In this document: in pieces, positions 2,759-63,900 of the stretch | Position numbering within the stretch: the first letter of the stretch is position 1 | Layout: the number at the start of each line of letters is the position of its first letter | Assembly: GCF_004765795.1 (NCBI RefSeq) | Contig: NZ_SBIV01000001.1 | Coordinates: forward strand, 372,001 to 436,000 | Source: Halorussus marinus | Lineage (GTDB): Archaea > Halobacteriota > Halobacteria > Halobacteriales > Haladaptataceae | DNA length: 64,000 nt | Direction: 5' to 3' | Notes under the pieces: generated by a model | The model's database searches: none | What the model saw: the letters and a program-made list of their open reading frames with translations, nothing else | Told to the model about the DNA's origin: nothing | Translations under genes and position numbers: made by a program

Positions 2759-2833
2759 GCTCCGTTGGTGTAGTCCGGCCAATCATCTTGCCCTCTCACG
2801 GCAAGGACCAGGGTTCAAATCCCTGACGGAGCA
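2759..2833 (+). tRNA. tRNA-Glu (anticodon CUC), intronless, CCA not encoded
   Basis: Acceptor stem GCTCCGT/ACGGAGC, anticodon arm TTGCC-CTCTCAC-GGCAA, T-arm GGTTCAAATCC. Confidence 0.96.
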
Positions 2834-3069
2834 CTCCTTCCTGCCGCCGTTCGACCTTCTAACAGTGCGTATTTCACCACCTATGTGTGATCGAAGACAG
2901 CCATCCGAGAATCGCACACAATCCGAGTCGTCTCTACTCGTTTAGACGCAGTAGCGCGGCCCGCCTCTCGGATCTGAAGCGGAGAGAGAGAAACGACGTT
3001 CCGGATCTCCCGTACCACTGACGATACCCCGAGAGTCGCGTCGTCTCCCTTCGTCTATCCCTCGAATAC

Positions 3070-4028
3070 CAGTAGTTGAAAACGCGATTTCTTTATTCAG
3101 TGTGAGAGATGAAACAGCCGGTCAGTACAGCTCAAAGACTGAATGCCCCGTGCCACCGAGAGACGGCTTACGCCGGCGTCCCGATGGCCTCTTAGATGTC
3201 CGGCTGCTCGACATTCGATTCCCAGAAGTAGTCTCGTAAGTATCGGTCGTCCATCGCACTACGCCCGGTCAATCGCGCGACTCGACAGACAGAAGCCCAG
3301 AGTAGCTGTTGAACGATCTTCGGCGCGATAGTAATCCGTGTTTCCTCCTTGACGTACTCGGCCAGCAACAGCCCTTGGACGAAATCAGGTTCTCCGTATC
3401 CGTCGTCAGTACCGAAGTATCCCTCGTGGTCGAGCCCCGCAGTCATGTATTGGGTGTCGATCGTCTTCTTCCACGGTACTTCTACCTCGAATGCCACAAA
3501 ATCGTCGGTATCGTTCTGAAAGTAGTGTGGGTCTCCCGGTTCGACGGTGAGTTCTTCACCGGTAGCGAGGTGTCGAGGGCTGTCATCAACGACGACAGTC
3601 AGTTCGCCTTTGACCGATCGAAAGACCTCTGTGCTCTCCATATGTACGTGGGCCGGCAGTGTCGTGGCCTCCGGACTCAACCAGACGAGCATGGCGGGAG
3701 TCTCTTTCTCGCTTGCTTCTGGGTACCGCAGTATCGTCGACCACATTCCCATACCCGGACTTGATGCGAGTGCATGAGGAGACTCTGAAAACAGTTCTAT
3801 AGCCCGTCCTTCCGGGTCAATTTCGAGAGCGGGCCCTTCGGTCGGCCCACCGGTGTCATCGAGTGGCCGGCCTGTAGTCTGAGATACCATACTGTTATTT
3901 ATAATCCTATTCACATGTGTCTGGCGGAAAGACTCTCCCTTCTCCTGACTTCGCATTCTCACGTACCGATTCAGCCGCCTCATTTTCAGCGCCTGCTCTG
4001 AATAAAGAAATTGCGCTAATAACTACTG
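3070..4028. mobile_element. Non-autonomous TIR-bounded cassette (MITE/mobile-insertion-cassette-like) carrying a cupin gene
   Basis: 31-bp imperfect terminal inverted repeats (26/31 identical) at 3070-3100 and 3998-4028 starting CAGTAGTT; ATAC direct repeat at 3066-3069 and 4029-4032; lower GC than flanks; no transposase. Confidence 0.75.
3192..3890 (-). CDS. Cupin-domain protein
   Basis: Cupin motif 1 PAHVHMESTEVFRSVKGEL and motif 2 GEELTVEPGDPHYFQN; ATG at 3890. Confidence 0.85.
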   Translation of the reverse strand: MVSQTTGRPLDDTGGPTEGPALEIDPEGRAIELFSESPHALASSPGMGMWSTILRYPEASEKETPAMLVWLSPEATTLPAHVHMESTEVFRSVKGELTVVVDDSPRHLATGEELTVEPGDPHYFQNDTDDFVAFEVEVPWKKTIDTQYMTAGLDHEGYFGTDDGYGEPDFVQGLLLAEYVKEETRITIAPKIVQQLLWASVCRVARLTGRSAMDDRYLRDYFWESNVEQPDI

Positions 4029-4274
4029 ATACGGGCGGGGTTTTCGCGCCGAAACGAAACCTATCGGGGAATATGCGAACCACGGTGCTCCGTGGGTATT
4101 CGAGGCGCCACCTACTTGTGCCCGCGTATTTTATCCGTTTTAGAAGATAGCTGTACAGTGAGAGACCAACTCGCGCGCCGAATTACCGAACGGTAAGCCG
4201 CCCCTCGAAGAATCGCCCGGAGCGCCAACAGTAATCGAACACTGACTTCGGAGACCGTCCGACCGACTCGACTC

Positions 4275-13697: not shown

Positions 13698-14342
13698 ATG
13701 AACCCGAGCCGGGTCGACTCGATCGTCGACCTCACCTACGGGCTGTTGATCGCGATCTCGGTCGGGCTGATCGTCGTGGCCGGCAACGCCGTGGGACTCG
13801 CGTTCGGGTTCGGCGTCCTCCTGTCGTACGTCATCCACGTCGTCTGGAAGATGGCCCGATTCGACCCCGACTGGATGACCACCGCGGTCAAAGAGACCGT
13901 CGAGGAGACGGTCGACGAGACGGTCGAAGAGAAGGTCGGCGAGACGGTGGAGAAGACCGTCGACGAGACGGTCGGCGACGCGGTCGAAGAACAGGTCGGC
14001 GAGACGGTCGAGGAGACCGTCGGCGAGACCGTGGAAGCGACGGTGGGCGAGACGGTCGAGGAGACCGTCGAAGAGACTGTCGGCGAGACCGTCGAGCAGA
14101 AAGTGGGTGAAACCGTCGAGCAGAAAGTCGGCGACGCGGTCGAAAAGCAGGTCGGCGAAACCGTCGAAGAGACTGTCGGCGAGACGGTCGAGGAGACTGT
14201 CGAAGAAACGGTCGAGGAGACGGTCACCGAAACGGTCGACGAAACCGTCGAGGAGACCGTCGAGAAGACCCTCGAAGAGCAACTGGGCGACGGAGACGAC
14301 GCCGAGAACGCCGAAGACGACGCCACGGACGGAGACCGCTGA
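13698..14342 (+). CDS. Membrane protein with 2 N-terminal TMs and an acidic tetrapeptide-repeat tail
   Basis: Hydrophobic N-terminus followed by 33 V-x-x-x units; stop overlaps the next ATG (TGATG). Confidence 0.85.
   Translation: MNPSRVDSIVDLTYGLLIAISVGLIVVAGNAVGLAFGFGVLLSYVIHVVWKMARFDPDWMTTAVKETVEETVDETVEEKVGETVEKTVDETVGDAVEEQVGETVEETVGETVEATVGETVEETVEETVGETVEQKVGETVEQKVGDAVEKQVGETVEETVGETVEETVEETVEETVTETVDETVEETVEKTLEEQLGDGDDAENAEDDATDGDR
13887..14282 (+). repeat. Imperfect 12-bp tandem repeat, 33 units, consensus approximately GTCGAGGAGACC
   Basis: Encodes VEET, VGET, VDET, VEQK, VGDA and similar units. Confidence 0.9.
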
Positions 14343-15520
14343 TGGTCGAACTCCTGCTCGTCGTCGGCGTCCTCGTCTCGATGTTCGTGGCGTACAACAT
14401 CGGCGGGTCGACGACGGGACCGGCGTTCGGCCCGGCGGTCGGCGCGGACGCGATCTCGAAGAGCGGGGCGGCCGCGCTGATGGGCGTGTTTTTCTTCATC
14501 GGCGCGTGGACTATCGGCCGCAACGTCGTGACGAAACTCGGGACCGAACTGGTGGTCGATCCGGCCGTGTTCACGCTCGAAGCGTCGATCACGGTGCTGT
14601 TTTTCATCGGGATCGCGCTCCTCGTGGGCAACGTCTTCGGGGTGCCGGCCTCGACGTCGATGACCGCGGTCGGCGCGATCGCGGGGCTGGGGCTGGCGGG
14701 CGGCGTCCTCGATCTGGCGGTCATGGGCGAGATCCTCGTCTGGTGGATCGTCTCGCCGATCATCGGCTTCTGGGTGTCGCTGATCATCGGCCGGTACTTC
14801 TACGCGCGGCTCAACCGTGCGGTCGCGATGGAGCGAAGCACCGGGCCGCTCCTCGAAGTCGACCGGTCGGGCGTCGTCCCGATTCCGCGGGTCCACCCGA
14901 CCACGAACCGCCGGGAGCTGATCGGGACGATCACGGTCGTCGCGATCGGCTGTCTGATGGCGTTCAGCTCCGGCACCTCGAACATCGCCAACGCTGTCGC
15001 GCCGCTGGTCGGTAGCGGCGAGTTGGCGATGAACCCCGCGATCATCTTCGGCGGGGTCGCGGTCGCGATCGGCGCGTTCACGATCGCCCGCCGGACGCTG
15101 GAGACGATGGGAAGCGACATCACCGAACTGCCCCTGACCGCCGCGATCGTCGTCGCCGGGGTCAGCTCCACGCTCGTGGTGTTCCTCTCGGCGCTGGGGA
15201 TCCCGGCGAGCTTCGTCGTCATCGCGACGATGTCGATCGTGGGACTCGGCTGGGGCCGGGCGACCCGTCCGGTCACGGTCTCGGAGGTCGTCGGCGACCA
15301 GCAGACCCCGCCGGTGACCGTCGACGCGCTGGCCGGCGACGAGCCGGGCGAGGAGCTACCGCCGATCGGCGAGGAGCCCACCGAGAGCGCCCCGAGCGGC
15401 GGGGACCTGTTCAAGCCCGCGACCACCGCGCGGGTCGTGTTGATGCAGAACATCGTCCCGGCGATCGCCACCGTCGGCGCGTATCTCACCTTCCGATTTC
15501 TCCCGGTGTTCGGGTTCTGA
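14342..15520 (+). CDS. PiT-family anion permease (CysP-like signature)
   Basis: NIGGSTTGPAFG, GVPASTS, SSGTSNIANAV and GIPASF segments; multiple TMs. Confidence 0.85.
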   Translation: MVELLLVVGVLVSMFVAYNIGGSTTGPAFGPAVGADAISKSGAAALMGVFFFIGAWTIGRNVVTKLGTELVVDPAVFTLEASITVLFFIGIALLVGNVFGVPASTSMTAVGAIAGLGLAGGVLDLAVMGEILVWWIVSPIIGFWVSLIIGRYFYARLNRAVAMERSTGPLLEVDRSGVVPIPRVHPTTNRRELIGTITVVAIGCLMAFSSGTSNIANAVAPLVGSGELAMNPAIIFGGVAVAIGAFTIARRTLETMGSDITELPLTAAIVVAGVSSTLVVFLSALGIPASFVVIATMSIVGLGWGRATRPVTVSEVVGDQQTPPVTVDALAGDEPGEELPPIGEEPTESAPSGGDLFKPATTARVVLMQNIVPAIATVGAYLTFRFLPVFGF

Positions 15521-28315: not shown

Positions 28316-29521
28316 ATGGGTCGTATGAACCACCGAGCCGGCGAGTCTGCGGTCGTCCCGGCACCGTTCGGCCCCCACGGTCTGGCCTGCGTGCGGTCGC
28401 TCAGTCGCCGCGGCGTCCGCACGGTCGTGGCCGCCGAGAGCGACGCCGACCTCACCAGCGCCTCGAAGTACTGCGACGAGTCGGTCGCGGTCCCCTCGCC
28501 CCACGAGGACGTGCTGGCGTACAAGGACGCGCTCCTGTCGCTGGCGGCGCGGTCGGACGTGCGCGCGGTGATACCGAACCGCGAGGAAGACGTGTACGTG
28601 CTGGCGAAGTACCGCGAGGAGTTTGCGACCCACGTCTCGCCGCTCTGGCCGGAGTTCGAGACGCTCCGGACGGCCCACGACAGGGTCCGACTCGCGGCGG
28701 CCGCCGAGGAAGCCGGGGTTGCCGTCCCCGAGACCCTGCTCCTCGACGACGTCGGCGCGGCCGAGTCGGAGCTGTTCGTCAAACCCCGGTATCCGATCCT
28801 CATCGCGGACTACGAGAGCACCTACGCCCCCACCGAGTGCGACCCGCGGAATCGGACCCAGTATCTCCGGTCGGGCGAGCGGCCGAACCGCGAGGCCATC
28901 GTCGCGGAGATGAACCACGTCCCGATCGCACAGGAGTTCGTCCGGGGCGGCGGCGAGGAGTACGCCTTCTTCGCGCTGTACGATCGGGGCGAGCCGGCCG
29001 CGACGTTCCAGCACCGCCAGCTCCGCGGGGAGACCTACGCCGGCGGCGCGAGCGTCTACCGCGAGTCGGTCGACATCCCGGCGCTCGACCGAGCCGGCCG
29101 GGCGCTGTTCGACCACCTCGGGTGGCACGGGATCGGCGAGGCGGAGTTCCTCAGAGACCCCGAGACGGGCGAGTTCAAGCTGATGGAGGTCAACCCCCGG
29201 ATGTGGGCGTCGCTGTCGTGTGCGATCGAGGCCGGCGTCGACTTCCCGTACTACTTCTGGCAGGTGTCGAACGGGGTCGCCGGCCCGTTCGAGGACGACT
29301 ACGCCGAGGGGATCGGGACCCACTCGCTGTTCGGCGAGCTCAAGTATCTCCGGAGCGTGATCGCCGGCGACTCCTCGCACGTCCCCAGACCTTCGGCCGG
29401 GTCGGCGATCAGGGACGTGGTCGCGTCGTGTCTCGCCCAGCCGAACTTCGAGTACTTCCGGCTCGACGATCCCGAGCCGTTCGTCCGCGGCCTGCTCGAC
29501 GTGAGCCCGTTCGACAAGTAG
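28316..29521 (+). CDS. ATP-grasp carboxylate-amine ligase (copy 1)
   Basis: ASKYCDE, VKPR, IAQEFV and EAEF...EVNPRMW; start at 28316 or 28325. Confidence 0.88.
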   Translation: MGRMNHRAGESAVVPAPFGPHGLACVRSLSRRGVRTVVAAESDADLTSASKYCDESVAVPSPHEDVLAYKDALLSLAARSDVRAVIPNREEDVYVLAKYREEFATHVSPLWPEFETLRTAHDRVRLAAAAEEAGVAVPETLLLDDVGAAESELFVKPRYPILIADYESTYAPTECDPRNRTQYLRSGERPNREAIVAEMNHVPIAQEFVRGGGEEYAFFALYDRGEPAATFQHRQLRGETYAGGASVYRESVDIPALDRAGRALFDHLGWHGIGEAEFLRDPETGEFKLMEVNPRMWASLSCAIEAGVDFPYYFWQVSNGVAGPFEDDYAEGIGTHSLFGELKYLRSVIAGDSSHVPRPSAGSAIRDVVASCLAQPNFEYFRLDDPEPFVRGLLDVSPFDK

Positions 29522-29618
29522 CAGGGCCGCTCGACGCCGGCCGGCGAGCAACGCAGTCGTCTACCTCGCCCGGTTCGGGGCCCACACGTTGATCCGCCTC
29601 AACGACCGTACGTAGTAC

Positions 29619-30809
29619 ATGACCCGATCGACGACGGAGTCGGTGTTGCTCTCGGCGAAGTACTCGCCGTCGTGTTATGCGTGTCTGCGGTCGCTCGCCG
29701 AGCGCGGCGTCCGCACCGTCGTCGTCTCGCCCCACGAGGGCGTCCCGGCGTTCGCGTCCAGGTACTGCGAGGAGTCGATCGTGGTGCCGTCGCCGAACGA
29801 CGACCTGCTGGCGTACAGAGACGCGTTGCTGTCGGTCGCCGACCGCCCCGAGGTGGCCGCCTTCGTCCCCATCTGGGAGGAAGACGCCTACCTGCTCGGA
29901 AAGTACGGCGAGGCGTTCGGCGCCCGGGTCGGCGGCGCGTGGCCCGACTTCGAGACGCTCCGGTCCGTTCAGGACCGACTCCGACTGGCGGAGGTCGCCG
30001 CCGACGCGGGCGTGGCCGTCCCGGCGACCCAGTCGTTCGACGACGTCGACGACTGGGACCGCGAGCGCATCCTCAAGTCGCGGTACAACCTCCTCGCCGG
30101 CGAGTACGTCGACTCGTTCTCGGAGCGAGACGCCGAACTCAACAAGACGCTGAAGTACCTCGCGCCCGGCGAAGAGCCCGACCCCGAGACCGTCTACGCG
30201 GCGCTAAACCACGTCCCGATCGCTCAGGAGACCGTCACCGGGGGCGCCGACGAGTACGCGTTCATCGCGCTGTACGACCGGGGCGAGCCGGTCGCGACGT
30301 ACCAGAAACACCAGATCCGGGCCAAGACCTACGCCGGCGGGACCAGCGTCTACCGGGAGTCGGTGGCGGTCCCGGCGCTCGAACGGGCCGGCCGGGCGTT
30401 GCTCGACGAGCTCGACTGGCACGGTCTCGCGGAGGTGGAGTTCCTCAGAGACCCCGAGACGGGCGAGTTCGAGCTGATGGAGGTCAACCCCCGGATGTGG
30501 GCGTCGGTCGCGTGCGCGATCGAGGCCGGTGCCGATTTCCCGTACTACTACTGGCGGCTCGCGACCGGCGAGGCCGACGGGATCGACGACGAGTACGCGG
30601 TCGGGACGGGGAACCACTCGCTGTTCGGCGAACTCCAGCACCTCTCGAGCGTGCTCCGGGACGACTACCCCGACGTCGAGCGACCGGCGTTCGACCGGCG
30701 ACTCTGGGAGATCGCCGCCTCGTGTTACAGCCAGCCCAACTTCGACTACCTCCGGCTCGACGACCCCGGCCCGTTCGTCCGGGGCGTGCGCGACGCCGTT
30801 CGGCTCTGA
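29619..30809 (+). CDS. ATP-grasp carboxylate-amine ligase (copy 2)
   Basis: ASRYCEE, LKSR, IAQE and EVEF...EVNPRMW. Confidence 0.9.
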   Translation: MTRSTTESVLLSAKYSPSCYACLRSLAERGVRTVVVSPHEGVPAFASRYCEESIVVPSPNDDLLAYRDALLSVADRPEVAAFVPIWEEDAYLLGKYGEAFGARVGGAWPDFETLRSVQDRLRLAEVAADAGVAVPATQSFDDVDDWDRERILKSRYNLLAGEYVDSFSERDAELNKTLKYLAPGEEPDPETVYAALNHVPIAQETVTGGADEYAFIALYDRGEPVATYQKHQIRAKTYAGGTSVYRESVAVPALERAGRALLDELDWHGLAEVEFLRDPETGEFELMEVNPRMWASVACAIEAGADFPYYYWRLATGEADGIDDEYAVGTGNHSLFGELQHLSSVLRDDYPDVERPAFDRRLWEIAASCYSQPNFDYLRLDDPGPFVRGVRDAVRL

Positions 30810-30983
30810 CGGTCGTGGCGCCCGAGTCCGGGCGCTCGGAGACCGACGCGCTCGACGACGGGCGAAACCGGGAGACCGGACCCGGAGACCGGTTCGTCTT
30901 CGCGGCGCGTCCCGTTGTTCTTACCCCGATCGGCGCGAGACGATGGTATACGTTCTTTGCTCTCTGCGACGATGCTCACCTAC

Positions 30984-32171
30984 ATGGGAGAGAGAATGGG
31001 GGATGCGGTACTGCTGCCCGCGAAGTATTCGCCGTCGTGTTACGCGTGTCTGCGGTCGCTCGCCAAGCGCGGCATCCGCACCGTCGTCGTCTCGGCGAAA
31101 GGGAGCGTGCCGGCGTTCGCGTCCCGGTACTGCGACGAGGCGCTGACGGTCCCGTCGCCCGACGAGGACCTGCTCGCGTACCGCGACGCACTGTTGTCGA
31201 TCGCGGCGCGGCCCGAGGTGAAGACGTTCGTTCCGACCGGCGAGGTCGACGCGTATCTGCTGGCGAAGTACAGCGACGAGTTCGAGGCCCACGTCACCGG
31301 AGTGTGGCCCGACCTCGACCGGCTCCGGCGGGTCCACGACCGACTGCTGTTGGCCGAGGCCGCCGAGGCCGCGGGGGTGCCGTTTCCGGAGACTCAGTCG
31401 TTCGACGACGTCGACGACTGGGACCGCGAACTGGTCATCAAGTCGCGGTACAACCTCCTCGCCGGCGAGTACCTCGACTCGCTGTCGGAGCGAGACGCCG
31501 AACTCAACAAGACGCTGAAGTACCTCCCGCCCGGCGAGCGACCCGATCGGGAGGCCATCCTCGCGGAGATGAACCACGTCCCGATCGTCCAGGAGTGCGT
31601 GCCCAAGCGCGGCGAGTACCTGTTCGGCGCGCTGTACGACCGGGGCGAGCCGGCCGCGACGTTCCAGCACCGCCAGATCCGCGGGGAGACCTACGCCGGC
31701 GGCGGCGGGTCCTACCGCGAGTCGGTCGACATCCCGGCGCTCGAGGAGGTCGGCCGGGCGTTGCTCGACGAACTCGACTGGCACGGGCTGGCCTGCATCG
31801 AGTACATGGAGGACGCAGAGACCGGGGAGTTCGTGCTCACCGAGATCAACCCCCGGATGTGGCGGTCGCTGGCGTTCGCGGTGGCGGCCGGCGCCGACTT
31901 CCCGTACTACTACTGGCAGCTCGCGAACGGCGAGGCCGACCGCTTTGGCGACGGCTACGAGGTCGGCGTCGGCGGCCACTACCTCCACGGCGAGCTGACC
32001 TACCTCCGGAGCGTGCTCCGCGACGAGTACCCGAACGTCGAACGACCCCCGGTCGGCCAGACGGTGTGGGAGATCGCCGCCTCGTGTTACGACCAGCCCA
32101 ACTTCGACTACCTCCGGCTCGACGACCCCGGCCCGTTCATCCGGGGCGTCCGCAGTACGATCCCGATGTGA
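30984..32171 (+). CDS. ATP-grasp carboxylate-amine ligase (copy 3)
   Basis: ASRYCDE, IKSR, IVQE and CIEY...EINPRMW; start uncertain (30972, 30984 or 30996). Confidence 0.88.
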   Translation: MGERMGDAVLLPAKYSPSCYACLRSLAKRGIRTVVVSAKGSVPAFASRYCDEALTVPSPDEDLLAYRDALLSIAARPEVKTFVPTGEVDAYLLAKYSDEFEAHVTGVWPDLDRLRRVHDRLLLAEAAEAAGVPFPETQSFDDVDDWDRELVIKSRYNLLAGEYLDSLSERDAELNKTLKYLPPGERPDREAILAEMNHVPIVQECVPKRGEYLFGALYDRGEPAATFQHRQIRGETYAGGGGSYRESVDIPALEEVGRALLDELDWHGLACIEYMEDAETGEFVLTEINPRMWRSLAFAVAAGADFPYYYWQLANGEADRFGDGYEVGVGGHYLHGELTYLRSVLRDEYPNVERPPVGQTVWEIAASCYDQPNFDYLRLDDPGPFIRGVRSTIPM

Positions 32172-63533: not shown

Positions 63534-63900
63534 CGACCTTTTGCTGCGGGCGCGCCCCGAGCGGCGCGCCCTTGCAAAAGCTCGATCAAAATCCTGCGTC
63601 ACCCCCTTCGGGGGTTCCTTGGTCCGCTCGCTCGGGCTTCGCCCTCGCTCTCGGTACAATTGCTCGCCTCCCGTGGACGATGGGAGTCACGAAGGTCACA
63701 AAACAGTGCGTGGCTCGGGGACACGTTCCACGGACCCACACCACAATCCGCCGCGAGCGACCGAAGGGAGCGAGCGGACCAAGGAACCGTCGAAGGAACA
63801 CCCGAGCGAAGCGAGGGTGTGACTGAGGCGGTGACGCCGTGTTTTTGATCGAGCTTTTGCAAGCGAGCGCCGCTCGGGGCGCGAGCGCAGCAAAAGGTCG
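63534..63900. repeat. 367-bp nested palindromic (REP/MITE-like) intergenic element
   Basis: About 58-bp near-perfect terminal inverted repeats CGACCTTTTGCTGCG...GCAAAAGCTCGATCAAAA, plus an inner 21-bp IR GGTTCCTTGGTCCGCTCGCTC/GAGCGAGCGGACCAAGGAACC. Confidence 0.9.

Follow-up and report, generated by a model that had tools for sequence, protein, structure and literature searches.

A cupin gene cassette in a haloarchaeon belongs to a family of transposase-free elements with a likely mobiliser that combines an ISH3-like transposase and an HRAMP module

Introduction

Elements of the MIC231 type, described from Bacillus cereus sensu lato and assigned to the IS231 subgroup of the IS4 family, consist of two inverted repeats without a transposase around one or several passenger genes, over 0.7-3 kb (PMC6199540). 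Insertion sequences of the ISH3 family are characterised in the available part of their description by CRGT ends, a 4-5 bp target duplication, a DDE transposase with the signature Y-2-R-3-E-3-R and a length of 1.2-1.5 kb (PMC2266710). The haloarchaeal MITEs (ISH2, HqIRS, MITEHsal) that are described in the accessible portions of two papers are mostly non-coding and shorter than ~520 bp (PMC3119063, PMC7002104). Finally, HRAMP, the haloarchaeal RAMP system, is presented as a nuclease-linked defence candidate, and the open sections of the papers concerned name no transposon in connection with it (PMC8730458, PMC12669027).

Here we analysed a stretch of 64,000 nucleotides of Halorussus marinus (hereafter the window; contig C1:372001-436000 of the source assembly), in which an earlier note, made from the letters alone, had proposed a cupin gene bounded by terminal inverted repeats (TIRs). 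We consider it likely, from sequence comparison, that this cassette belongs to a large haloarchaeal family and was inserted in trans by the ISH3-like transposase of a 6-7 kb element carrying HRAMP genes. The full-text literature that we searched, which covers the lesser part of the subscription papers, holds no description of such a cassette family or of a transposon-borne HRAMP; small members may already bear names, for example HqIRS39 or class ISH16, and so may the transposase.

The cupin cassette and its surroundings

The features of the locus are as follows, in window coordinates.

3070..4028, no strand: the whole transposase-free cargo cassette, 959 bp
3066..3069, plus strand: left target-site duplication ATAC; the family target is nTAn
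3070..3100, plus strand: left 31-bp TIR; 24-27/31 against TIRs of transposase-bearing elements, 13-18/31 against those of sister IS groups
3101..3130, plus strand: A-type subterminal module, with a 9-bp spacer, TGAAAC, 7 bp and CAGTACAG; conserved among cassettes with unrelated cargo
3192..3890, minus strand: cupin gene, 232 aa; Pfam Cupin_2, with HxHxxxxE and PGxxH motifs
3891..3948, minus strand: AT-rich upstream region captured with the cupin gene, likely the promoter; it aligns to the upstream DNA of the TIR-less homologs L376 and L377
3949..3997, minus strand: B-type subterminal module, with a spacer and TGAAA(C/A)TGA ... TCGGTA ... TGCGAA
3998..4028, minus strand: right 31-bp TIR; 19-25/31 against TIRs of transposase-bearing elements
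4029..4032, plus strand: right target-site duplication ATAC, matching the left copy
2759..2834, plus strand: tRNA-Glu(CTC), given for context; the relatives shown differ in the DNA that follows it

The left end (3070-3100) and the reverse complement of the right end (3998-4028) are identical at 26 of 31 positions, with the outer 8 and the inner 14 bases perfect, and an ATAC direct repeat (3066-3069 and 4029-4032) flanks the 959-bp interval; all of this reproduces exactly what the earlier note had read. In simulations of 2835-4274 with matched dinucleotide make-up (n = 40), the best inverted match was 19-22/31. The cassette was also said to be lower in GC than its neighbours, which holds clearly against the whole window (0.54 vs 0.685), but the short flanks are low as well (0.56 and 0.57): the low-GC patch is all of 2835-4274 and is wider than the cassette.

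The cupin gene is the only credible gene inside (Pfam Cupin_2, E 1e-10). It is intact, as had been claimed, and has an AT-rich region upstream, though its start had to be corrected to the ATG at 3890, giving 232 aa and not the 263-aa ORF; homologs of 229-235 aa begin there. Its GC3 is 0.60 vs 0.86-0.90 in three neighbour genes.

The proximity of tRNA-Glu, to which attention had been drawn, is incidental: a tRNA lies within ~3 kb of the repeat at only 2 of 60 other loci, and targeting of tRNA genes was rejected on this count. A relative with an empty, single-ATAC site had been suggested as a check. None was found for the cupin cassette among 60 relatives, which have the tRNA in common and differ in the flanks that follow it, or in four sequencing runs searched; one close contig in run X1 (99% identical) carries the cassette at the same place.

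Three other repeats were seen in the window. A 367-bp stretch at 63534-63900 resembles haloarchaeal transposase-free repeats, having inner palindromes and inverted ends of 58 bp (93%); an apparently coding array of 12-bp tandem repeats (~40 units) lies at 13833-14348; and a coding unit of ~1.3 kb stands in three tandem copies, 65-86% alike, at 28342-32157.

A haloarchaeal family with the same ends

Searched with a looser pattern, 114 of the 401 Halobacteriales genomes contained the 31-bp repeat, and the reversed control gave no hit. When the common TIR bases were used as an exact pattern, 78 stretches in the genome collection matched, 74 of them haloarchaeal by title and the other four without a partner end. 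Loci from several searches were pooled into 122 repeat pairs, and 110 were left after removal of duplicates and of pairs longer than 8 kb; these counts are slightly generous, as pairing favoured partners with the same duplication, some pairs lie within others and L302/L330 is still counted twice. Exact 4-bp duplications flank 66 of the 110 pairs, with nTAn in 62 of the 66, and the other 44 are without one; unrelated ends match over 4 bp by chance in 4.2% of cases (first 80 pairs).

By content, the 110 pairs comprise 80 cassettes longer than 300 bp without transposase or HRAMP hits, 15 MITEs (110-280 bp) and 15 with such genes or their remnants. The expectation that the same TIR pair would surround other cargo genes in haloarchaea was thus borne out. 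Among the cassettes, 46 that are flanked by duplications fall in 37 content clusters. The cargo that could be named includes an ars-type trio, a Cys/Met enzyme with MOSC, VapBC pairs, hydrolases, a racemase, an MFS transporter, a sensor kinase, Usp, Rieske genes and ferritin-like genes; no Pfam family was assigned to many cargo ORFs, and a clear ORF is missing from some small cassettes. Interior GC is below flank GC in 43 of 53 cassettes. One sequence, L003, holds adapter-like text and was not used as evidence.

The source genome contains a second family cassette (C19:12702-13169, equal to L001:4703-5170), which is 468 bp long, is flanked by an ATAG duplication and holds one small membrane-protein ORF. 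Degenerate or unpaired family ends were also seen there at C4:205940, C6:38041, C10:47573 and C10:48102, and the one at C10:47573 retains an A-type module.

The conserved ends extend past the TIRs, as modules of 61 bp (A, left) and ~80 bp (B, right) that are made of conserved boxes with free spacers between them. One A and one B end were present in 33 of the 74 pairs scored, among them the cupin cassette, with A on the left and B on the right; 40 of the ends of these A/B pairs had served as seeds for the profiles. Both gene orientations occur among the 33 A/B elements, which rules out a fixed orientation dictated by a built-in promoter. In run X1, 11 contigs depart from the window at 3130, the edge of A, and one contig joins 3129 to 3984; in this mixed sample, and at 80% likeness, the departures are only a hint of other cassettes with the same ends.

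Mobility was assessed from other members of the family. Gapless empty sites were found for three of them: L019 against L350 (89%, with one of the four target bases differing), L049 against contig C14 (92%) and L077 against contig C7 (95%), the latter two matches lying in the source genome. One VapBC cassette stands at four unrelated sites with the duplications TTTA, CTAA, CTAT and TTAA, and in a fifth copy without duplication; genome G038 holds three near-identical 110-bp MITEs with duplications. On this family evidence we regard the cassettes as a real and mobile family. Together with the same TIRs around many cargoes and the TIR-bearing DDE elements described below, the empty sites support the proposal of the earlier note that the cupin cassette is a non-autonomous, gene-carrying element moved in trans. 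The cassette lies in a variable region, behind a tRNA gene, which might instead recall a site-specific recombinase, whose sites, or mere chance, would then account for the repeats in place of transposon ends. We find this scarcely credible, since the simulations reach 22/31 at most, a DDE transposase lies inside the same ends, and the family-wide 4-bp duplications and gapless empty sites already refute it.

A candidate mobiliser with an ISH3-like transposase

One repeat pair, L076, contained part of a DDE transposase. Used as a query against the 401 genomes, this fragment retrieved transposases of 600-690 aa with a TIR directly behind the stop codon, with close hits in only ~15 of the genomes vs the 114 that have TIRs. 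Eighteen regions were fetched. In 9 of them the transposase is accompanied by three conserved genes at the opposite end; 2 have remnants of these genes, 1 is cut by a contig end, 1 retains just the left TIR and the transposase, 2 are fragments, and the last 3, which are more distant, have neither the three genes nor TIRs. Both TIRs and exact duplications (TTAC, ATAC, ATAA, GTAA) delimit elements of 6.0-7.3 kb in L232, L233, L234 and L245, and L230 has both TIRs and no exact duplication. Internal-deletion forms (L030, L074, L076) link the large and small elements.

The transposase of L233 contains the residues D333, D412 and E526, and the signature Y-2-R-3-E-3-R as Y519, R522, E526 and R530. 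Large-element transposases score 64-119 bits vs the NCBIfam ISH3 cut-off of 225 (NF033541), and in a quick tree, which took in no IS701-like rows, they occupy a branch apart from classical ISH3. We found two further ISH3-like IS groups, with transposases of ~385 and ~550 aa (L190, L193, L197, L214-L217, L220, L222-L229; L189, L192, L194), whose ends begin CAGTAGTT and have a different inner sequence. The TIRs of the cupin cassette agree with those of the large elements at 19-27/31 vs 11-18/31 with these sister groups.

Several other partners were ruled out. None of the IS701-like (DDE_5) loci retrieved rose above 9 with the TIR profile, classical ISH3 loci had no TIR, none of the transposases of the source genome carries one, and a 430-aa transposase in L044 belongs to a nested, unrelated IS with its own ends. 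The ends had initially been likened to both ISH3 and IS701; the first attribution stands, for the ends as for the partner transposase, and the second falls.

A search for the partner in the genome of the cassette itself had been suggested. None was found in the source assembly, where the best tblastn matches have 24-29% identity and belong to another group; the 6-7 kb element lies in other genomes. Because the source assembly is without a partner, the transposase for the cupin cassette was likely supplied by a visiting plasmid or by a copy since lost. An identical large element occurs in the plasmid record NC_019967.1 (intact element at 63380-69948), some match was obtained in 44 plasmid records, and there was no match in the phage collection. 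A degenerate large element with both TIRs and a TTAC duplication is present in pNRC200 of Halobacterium NRC-1 (NC_002608.1; L371:2501-8508); its cas7 is missing, an IS6 gene lies inside, and it is annotated only as hypothetical proteins and a transposase.

The likely mobiliser of the cassettes, judging by its sequence, is this 6-7 kb element with the same ends, an ISH3-like DDE transposase and an HRAMP module. It is quite improbable, in our estimate, that another ISH3-like transposase moved them, from the 385-aa or 550-aa sister groups or one yet unfound, with the HRAMP elements merely sharing an ancestor with it. The sister groups are commoner, have the first 8 bases in common with the family and also begin CAGTAGTT, and most TIR-positive genomes are without a large element. 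Moreover, in most cassettes the A and B modules do not copy the large-element ends and have only the TIR and a TGAAA.TGA box in common with them, so that a different, undiscovered cognate transposase is possible. Yet the sister TIRs reach only 11-18/31 and are without the inner TTTCTTTATTCAG box, whereas the large elements reach 19-27/31, and the TIR was absent from the IS701-like and classical ISH3 loci.

If the HRAMP-bearing element is indeed the mobiliser, its transposase would bind the TIR and the subterminal boxes and excise the cassette with cuts at the TIR tips, then insert it at nTAn with no other preference for a site; by analogy with IS4-related families, the chemistry would be of the cut-and-paste kind. 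The cassettes may spread between species on plasmids, sometimes by insertion into a large element. Of the 67 pairs that came from pattern scans, three are inside or next to a large element, which gives a possible route for co-transfer, and in L013:774-3031 an arsenic-resistance-type cassette (ArsR, LMWPc and SBF families) sits inside a large element, between its HTH and transposase genes.

The HRAMP module of the large element

The three genes beside the TIR at the end opposite the transposase encode a Cas7-like, a conserved uncharacterised and a predicted Cas5-like protein. Neither the Cas7-like nor the Cas5-like protein gave a hit in Pfam or NCBIfam. The Cas7-like protein (285 aa) yielded an alignment-based model of pLDDT 79 (31 from the single sequence), which matched type VII and Csm complexes in Foldseek (E 1.7e-7, TM 0.40); it also matched Atlas RAMP clusters (0.96-0.98), and according to the predicted structure it folds like Cas7. 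The predicted Cas5-like protein (306 aa) matched Atlas clusters named Csm4 or with RAMPs/Csm4_C (0.90-0.99). The middle protein, of 246 aa, has 46-94% identity over 39 loci.

The Cas7-like gene is found in 86 of the 401 genomes. Of 40 further loci fetched, 14 are canonical HRAMP, one of them in the source genome; none of the 14 has a TIR, and 12 have a DEDD-type gene after cas5, which was present in 0 of the 34 transposon-clade rows shown. The remaining loci group with the transposon copies, apart from canonical HRAMP with 100% support in a quick Cas7 tree, and Cas7 of this clade is 55-60% identical to that of nuclease-linked HRAMP loci, including one in the source genome. Among 35 rows of the clade, our labels give a full TIR behind cas5 in 17, only its inner part in 13 and none in 5. 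From these sequences, the nuclease-stripped HRAMP clade appears to be transposon-borne, as in CRISPR-associated transposons (CASTs).

Two further observations concern HRAMP loci. In the source genome, L287 (C11:18054-24165) is a canonical HRAMP with Cas7-like, unknown, Cas5-like and DEDD-type genes, then a gene with an HNH-like motif, and no TIR. Elsewhere, transposase-less HRAMP copies have the inner TIR box right behind cas5 and a changed tip (L249, L250, L256, L260-L263, L266, L268-L270, L272), and inner-box retention in such copies extends over several separate lineages.

HRAMP might be part of the machine. On that account, Cas7, X and Cas5 would form a nuclease-less complex that binds either an RNA or the inner TIR box and aids transposase assembly, target choice or cargo capture, as in CRISPR-associated transposons. 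We think this rather unlikely, although several findings speak for it. The three genes adjoin the TIR in elements whose transposases are as little as 32-36% alike, their Cas7 clade is fully separated from canonical HRAMP, and the TIR stands after cas5 where canonical loci have the DEDD-type gene. In 12 copies without the TIR tip, positions 17-28 were kept in 10-12, as against position 1 in 2 and position 3 in 1, a count that is partly circular as the copies were chosen by the inner TIR motif. In four elements (L230:4096-4755, L234, L236, L251), a ~220-aa TnpB-like gene comprising only the RuvC and zinc finger part abuts the start of cas7, and could be a stand-in nuclease for HRAMP.

Other findings weigh against such a role. 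There was no match to CRISPR or other Rfam RNA in the three elements scanned, and no TnsC ATPase or TniQ/TnsD adaptor among 26 proteins from 8 elements. Insertion targets show no pattern beyond nTAn, no tRNA link and no likeness to the element itself (mean local score 8.78 vs 8.86 in the control, 46 elements); with the Rfam scan blank, an element-encoded guide was rejected, and a guide might still come from outside the element. HRAMP is lacking from the simple IS to which the sister transposases with CAGTAGTT ends belong, L238 has the left TIR and transposase and no HRAMP, and the HRAMP and transposase halves have been swapped between elements (L230 vs L234, 93% alike on the left and 72% on the right). 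Because no sign of RNA-guided targeting was found, HRAMP may by default be read as a stable passenger module and not as a target selector. We hold it correspondingly doubtful that an HRAMP complex without nuclease and array was recruited by an ISH3-like enzyme, that it recognises either the inner TIR box or an RNA containing the TIR and acts in transposition or host-gene capture, and that the cupin cassette is one of hundreds of gene shuttles built and moved in this way across haloarchaea.

Capture of the cargo and present state of the cassette

Copies in genus g21, which belongs to another family, have 82-85% identity to the cupin of the cassette, against 57-58% for copies in its own genus; no TIR was seen at any of 23 homolog loci. 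The nearest of these, L376 and L377, have the gene and ~65 bp upstream in common with the cassette. At L376:1430-1500 and 2197-2270 the likeness takes in the inner tip of each end module (19/24 and 15/24), and both matches are the single best place among 3,672; no such likeness was seen in L377. L376 is therefore either a relic of the same cassette with decayed ends, for which its low GC (0.57) would fit, the ends having been lost, or the trace of a capture by short homology. Either way, it points to capture of the promoter region and gene as DNA. The TATA-like words upstream of the cargo in L021, L078 and L333 match those of their TIR-less homologs as well. RNA-mediated capture is unlikely, since upstream DNA was captured along with the gene.

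We thus envisage that cargo is taken up as DNA, promoter and gene together, close to the end modules, and that gap repair or recombination at short homologies probably exchanges the interior while the ends stay fixed. Four cassettes (L008, L021, L037, L064) have doubled ends, with two same-facing TIRs ~123 bp apart on each side; their ends are 77-88% alike and their contents differ, which fits a swap of cargo between fixed ends by DNA repair.

It is possible, though on the improbable side, that the cupin cassette is a fixed relic, once mobile and now inert, with the cupin kept as an ordinary gene. The partner is absent from the genome, the X1 contig has the cassette at the same site, the TIRs differ at five positions, and L376 resembles a copy with decayed ends. 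Against this, both TIR tips, both inner boxes, both subterminal modules and the duplication are all intact, and the five mismatches fall at positions that vary across the family. As to origin, such a relic is compatible with insertion in trans by the HRAMP-bearing element.

Implications

The family would represent an unannotated route of gene flow in haloarchaea, with ends in over a quarter of the sampled genomes and a cargo that spans arsenic-resistance, metabolic, transport, signalling and toxin-antitoxin genes. Annotation misses the cassettes because there is no transposase inside. HRAMP, a CRISPR derivative, gains a defined setting as a transposon-borne clade without the usual nuclease gene, of which cultured strains have intact copies and Halobacterium NRC-1 a degenerate one; its function, and the steering of a non-Tn7 transposase, thereby become directly testable. 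Should HRAMP prove an active partner, the large element would be a new kind of CRISPR-derived transposon. The 61 + 80 bp ends offer a minimal delivery vector for haloarchaea.

Comparison with known systems

The large element resembles ISH3 in its ends, duplication, DDE motif and archaeal host (PMC2266710). It departs from the family, as far as the available part of that description goes, in a transposase of 600-690 aa below the NCBIfam cut-off, a length of 6-7.3 kb and a bipartite 31-bp TIR. Unlike IS701, whose ends are ---YACT-Y--YR, the family ends read CAGTAGT, and none of the DDE_5 loci retrieved has a transposase within such ends.

The Cas7-like, conserved unknown and predicted Cas5-like genes correspond to those of HRAMP, with no array seen in the three elements scanned against Rfam. 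Compared with the HRAMP of the open sections of the literature, however, the partner's module is a separate clade that has no DEDD-type gene behind cas5 and shares its transposon ends with a DDE transposase. As in the CRISPR-associated transposons (Tn7-like, Mu-like, telomeric) covered by the accessible text, class 1 effector genes without the usual nuclease lie inside a transposon; unlike in these, no array was seen and no TnsC or TniQ recognised, there is a single ISH3-like transposase, and no targeting was seen (PMC12669027).

The cassettes share with the haloarchaeal MITEs of the sections available that they are transposase-free and TIR-bounded and, with a candidate partner, likely moved in trans; they differ from them in holding whole host genes and operons, up to ~3 kb. 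With MIC231, as partly accessible, the likeness is closer. Two terminal IRs, no transposase, a passenger CDS and the same ends around different passengers were all found in the family, and as to duplication and empty site, there is ATAC at the cupin cassette itself and empty sites for three other members only. As in MIC231 (PMC6199540), the cargo is varied and the subterminal region is conserved; the movement in trans by a related element described for MIC231 would here fall to the candidate partner. The differences are that the present family is archaeal, has ISH3-type CAGT ends and a 4-bp nTAn duplication vs CAT ends and 10-12 bp, comprises at least 37 content clusters vs 10 MICs described in the sections available (PMC6199540), has two distinct end modules, and has as candidate partner a multi-gene element of 6-7 kb. 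By analogy, the cassette appears to work like MIC231 yet is not one, and its partner is unexpected.
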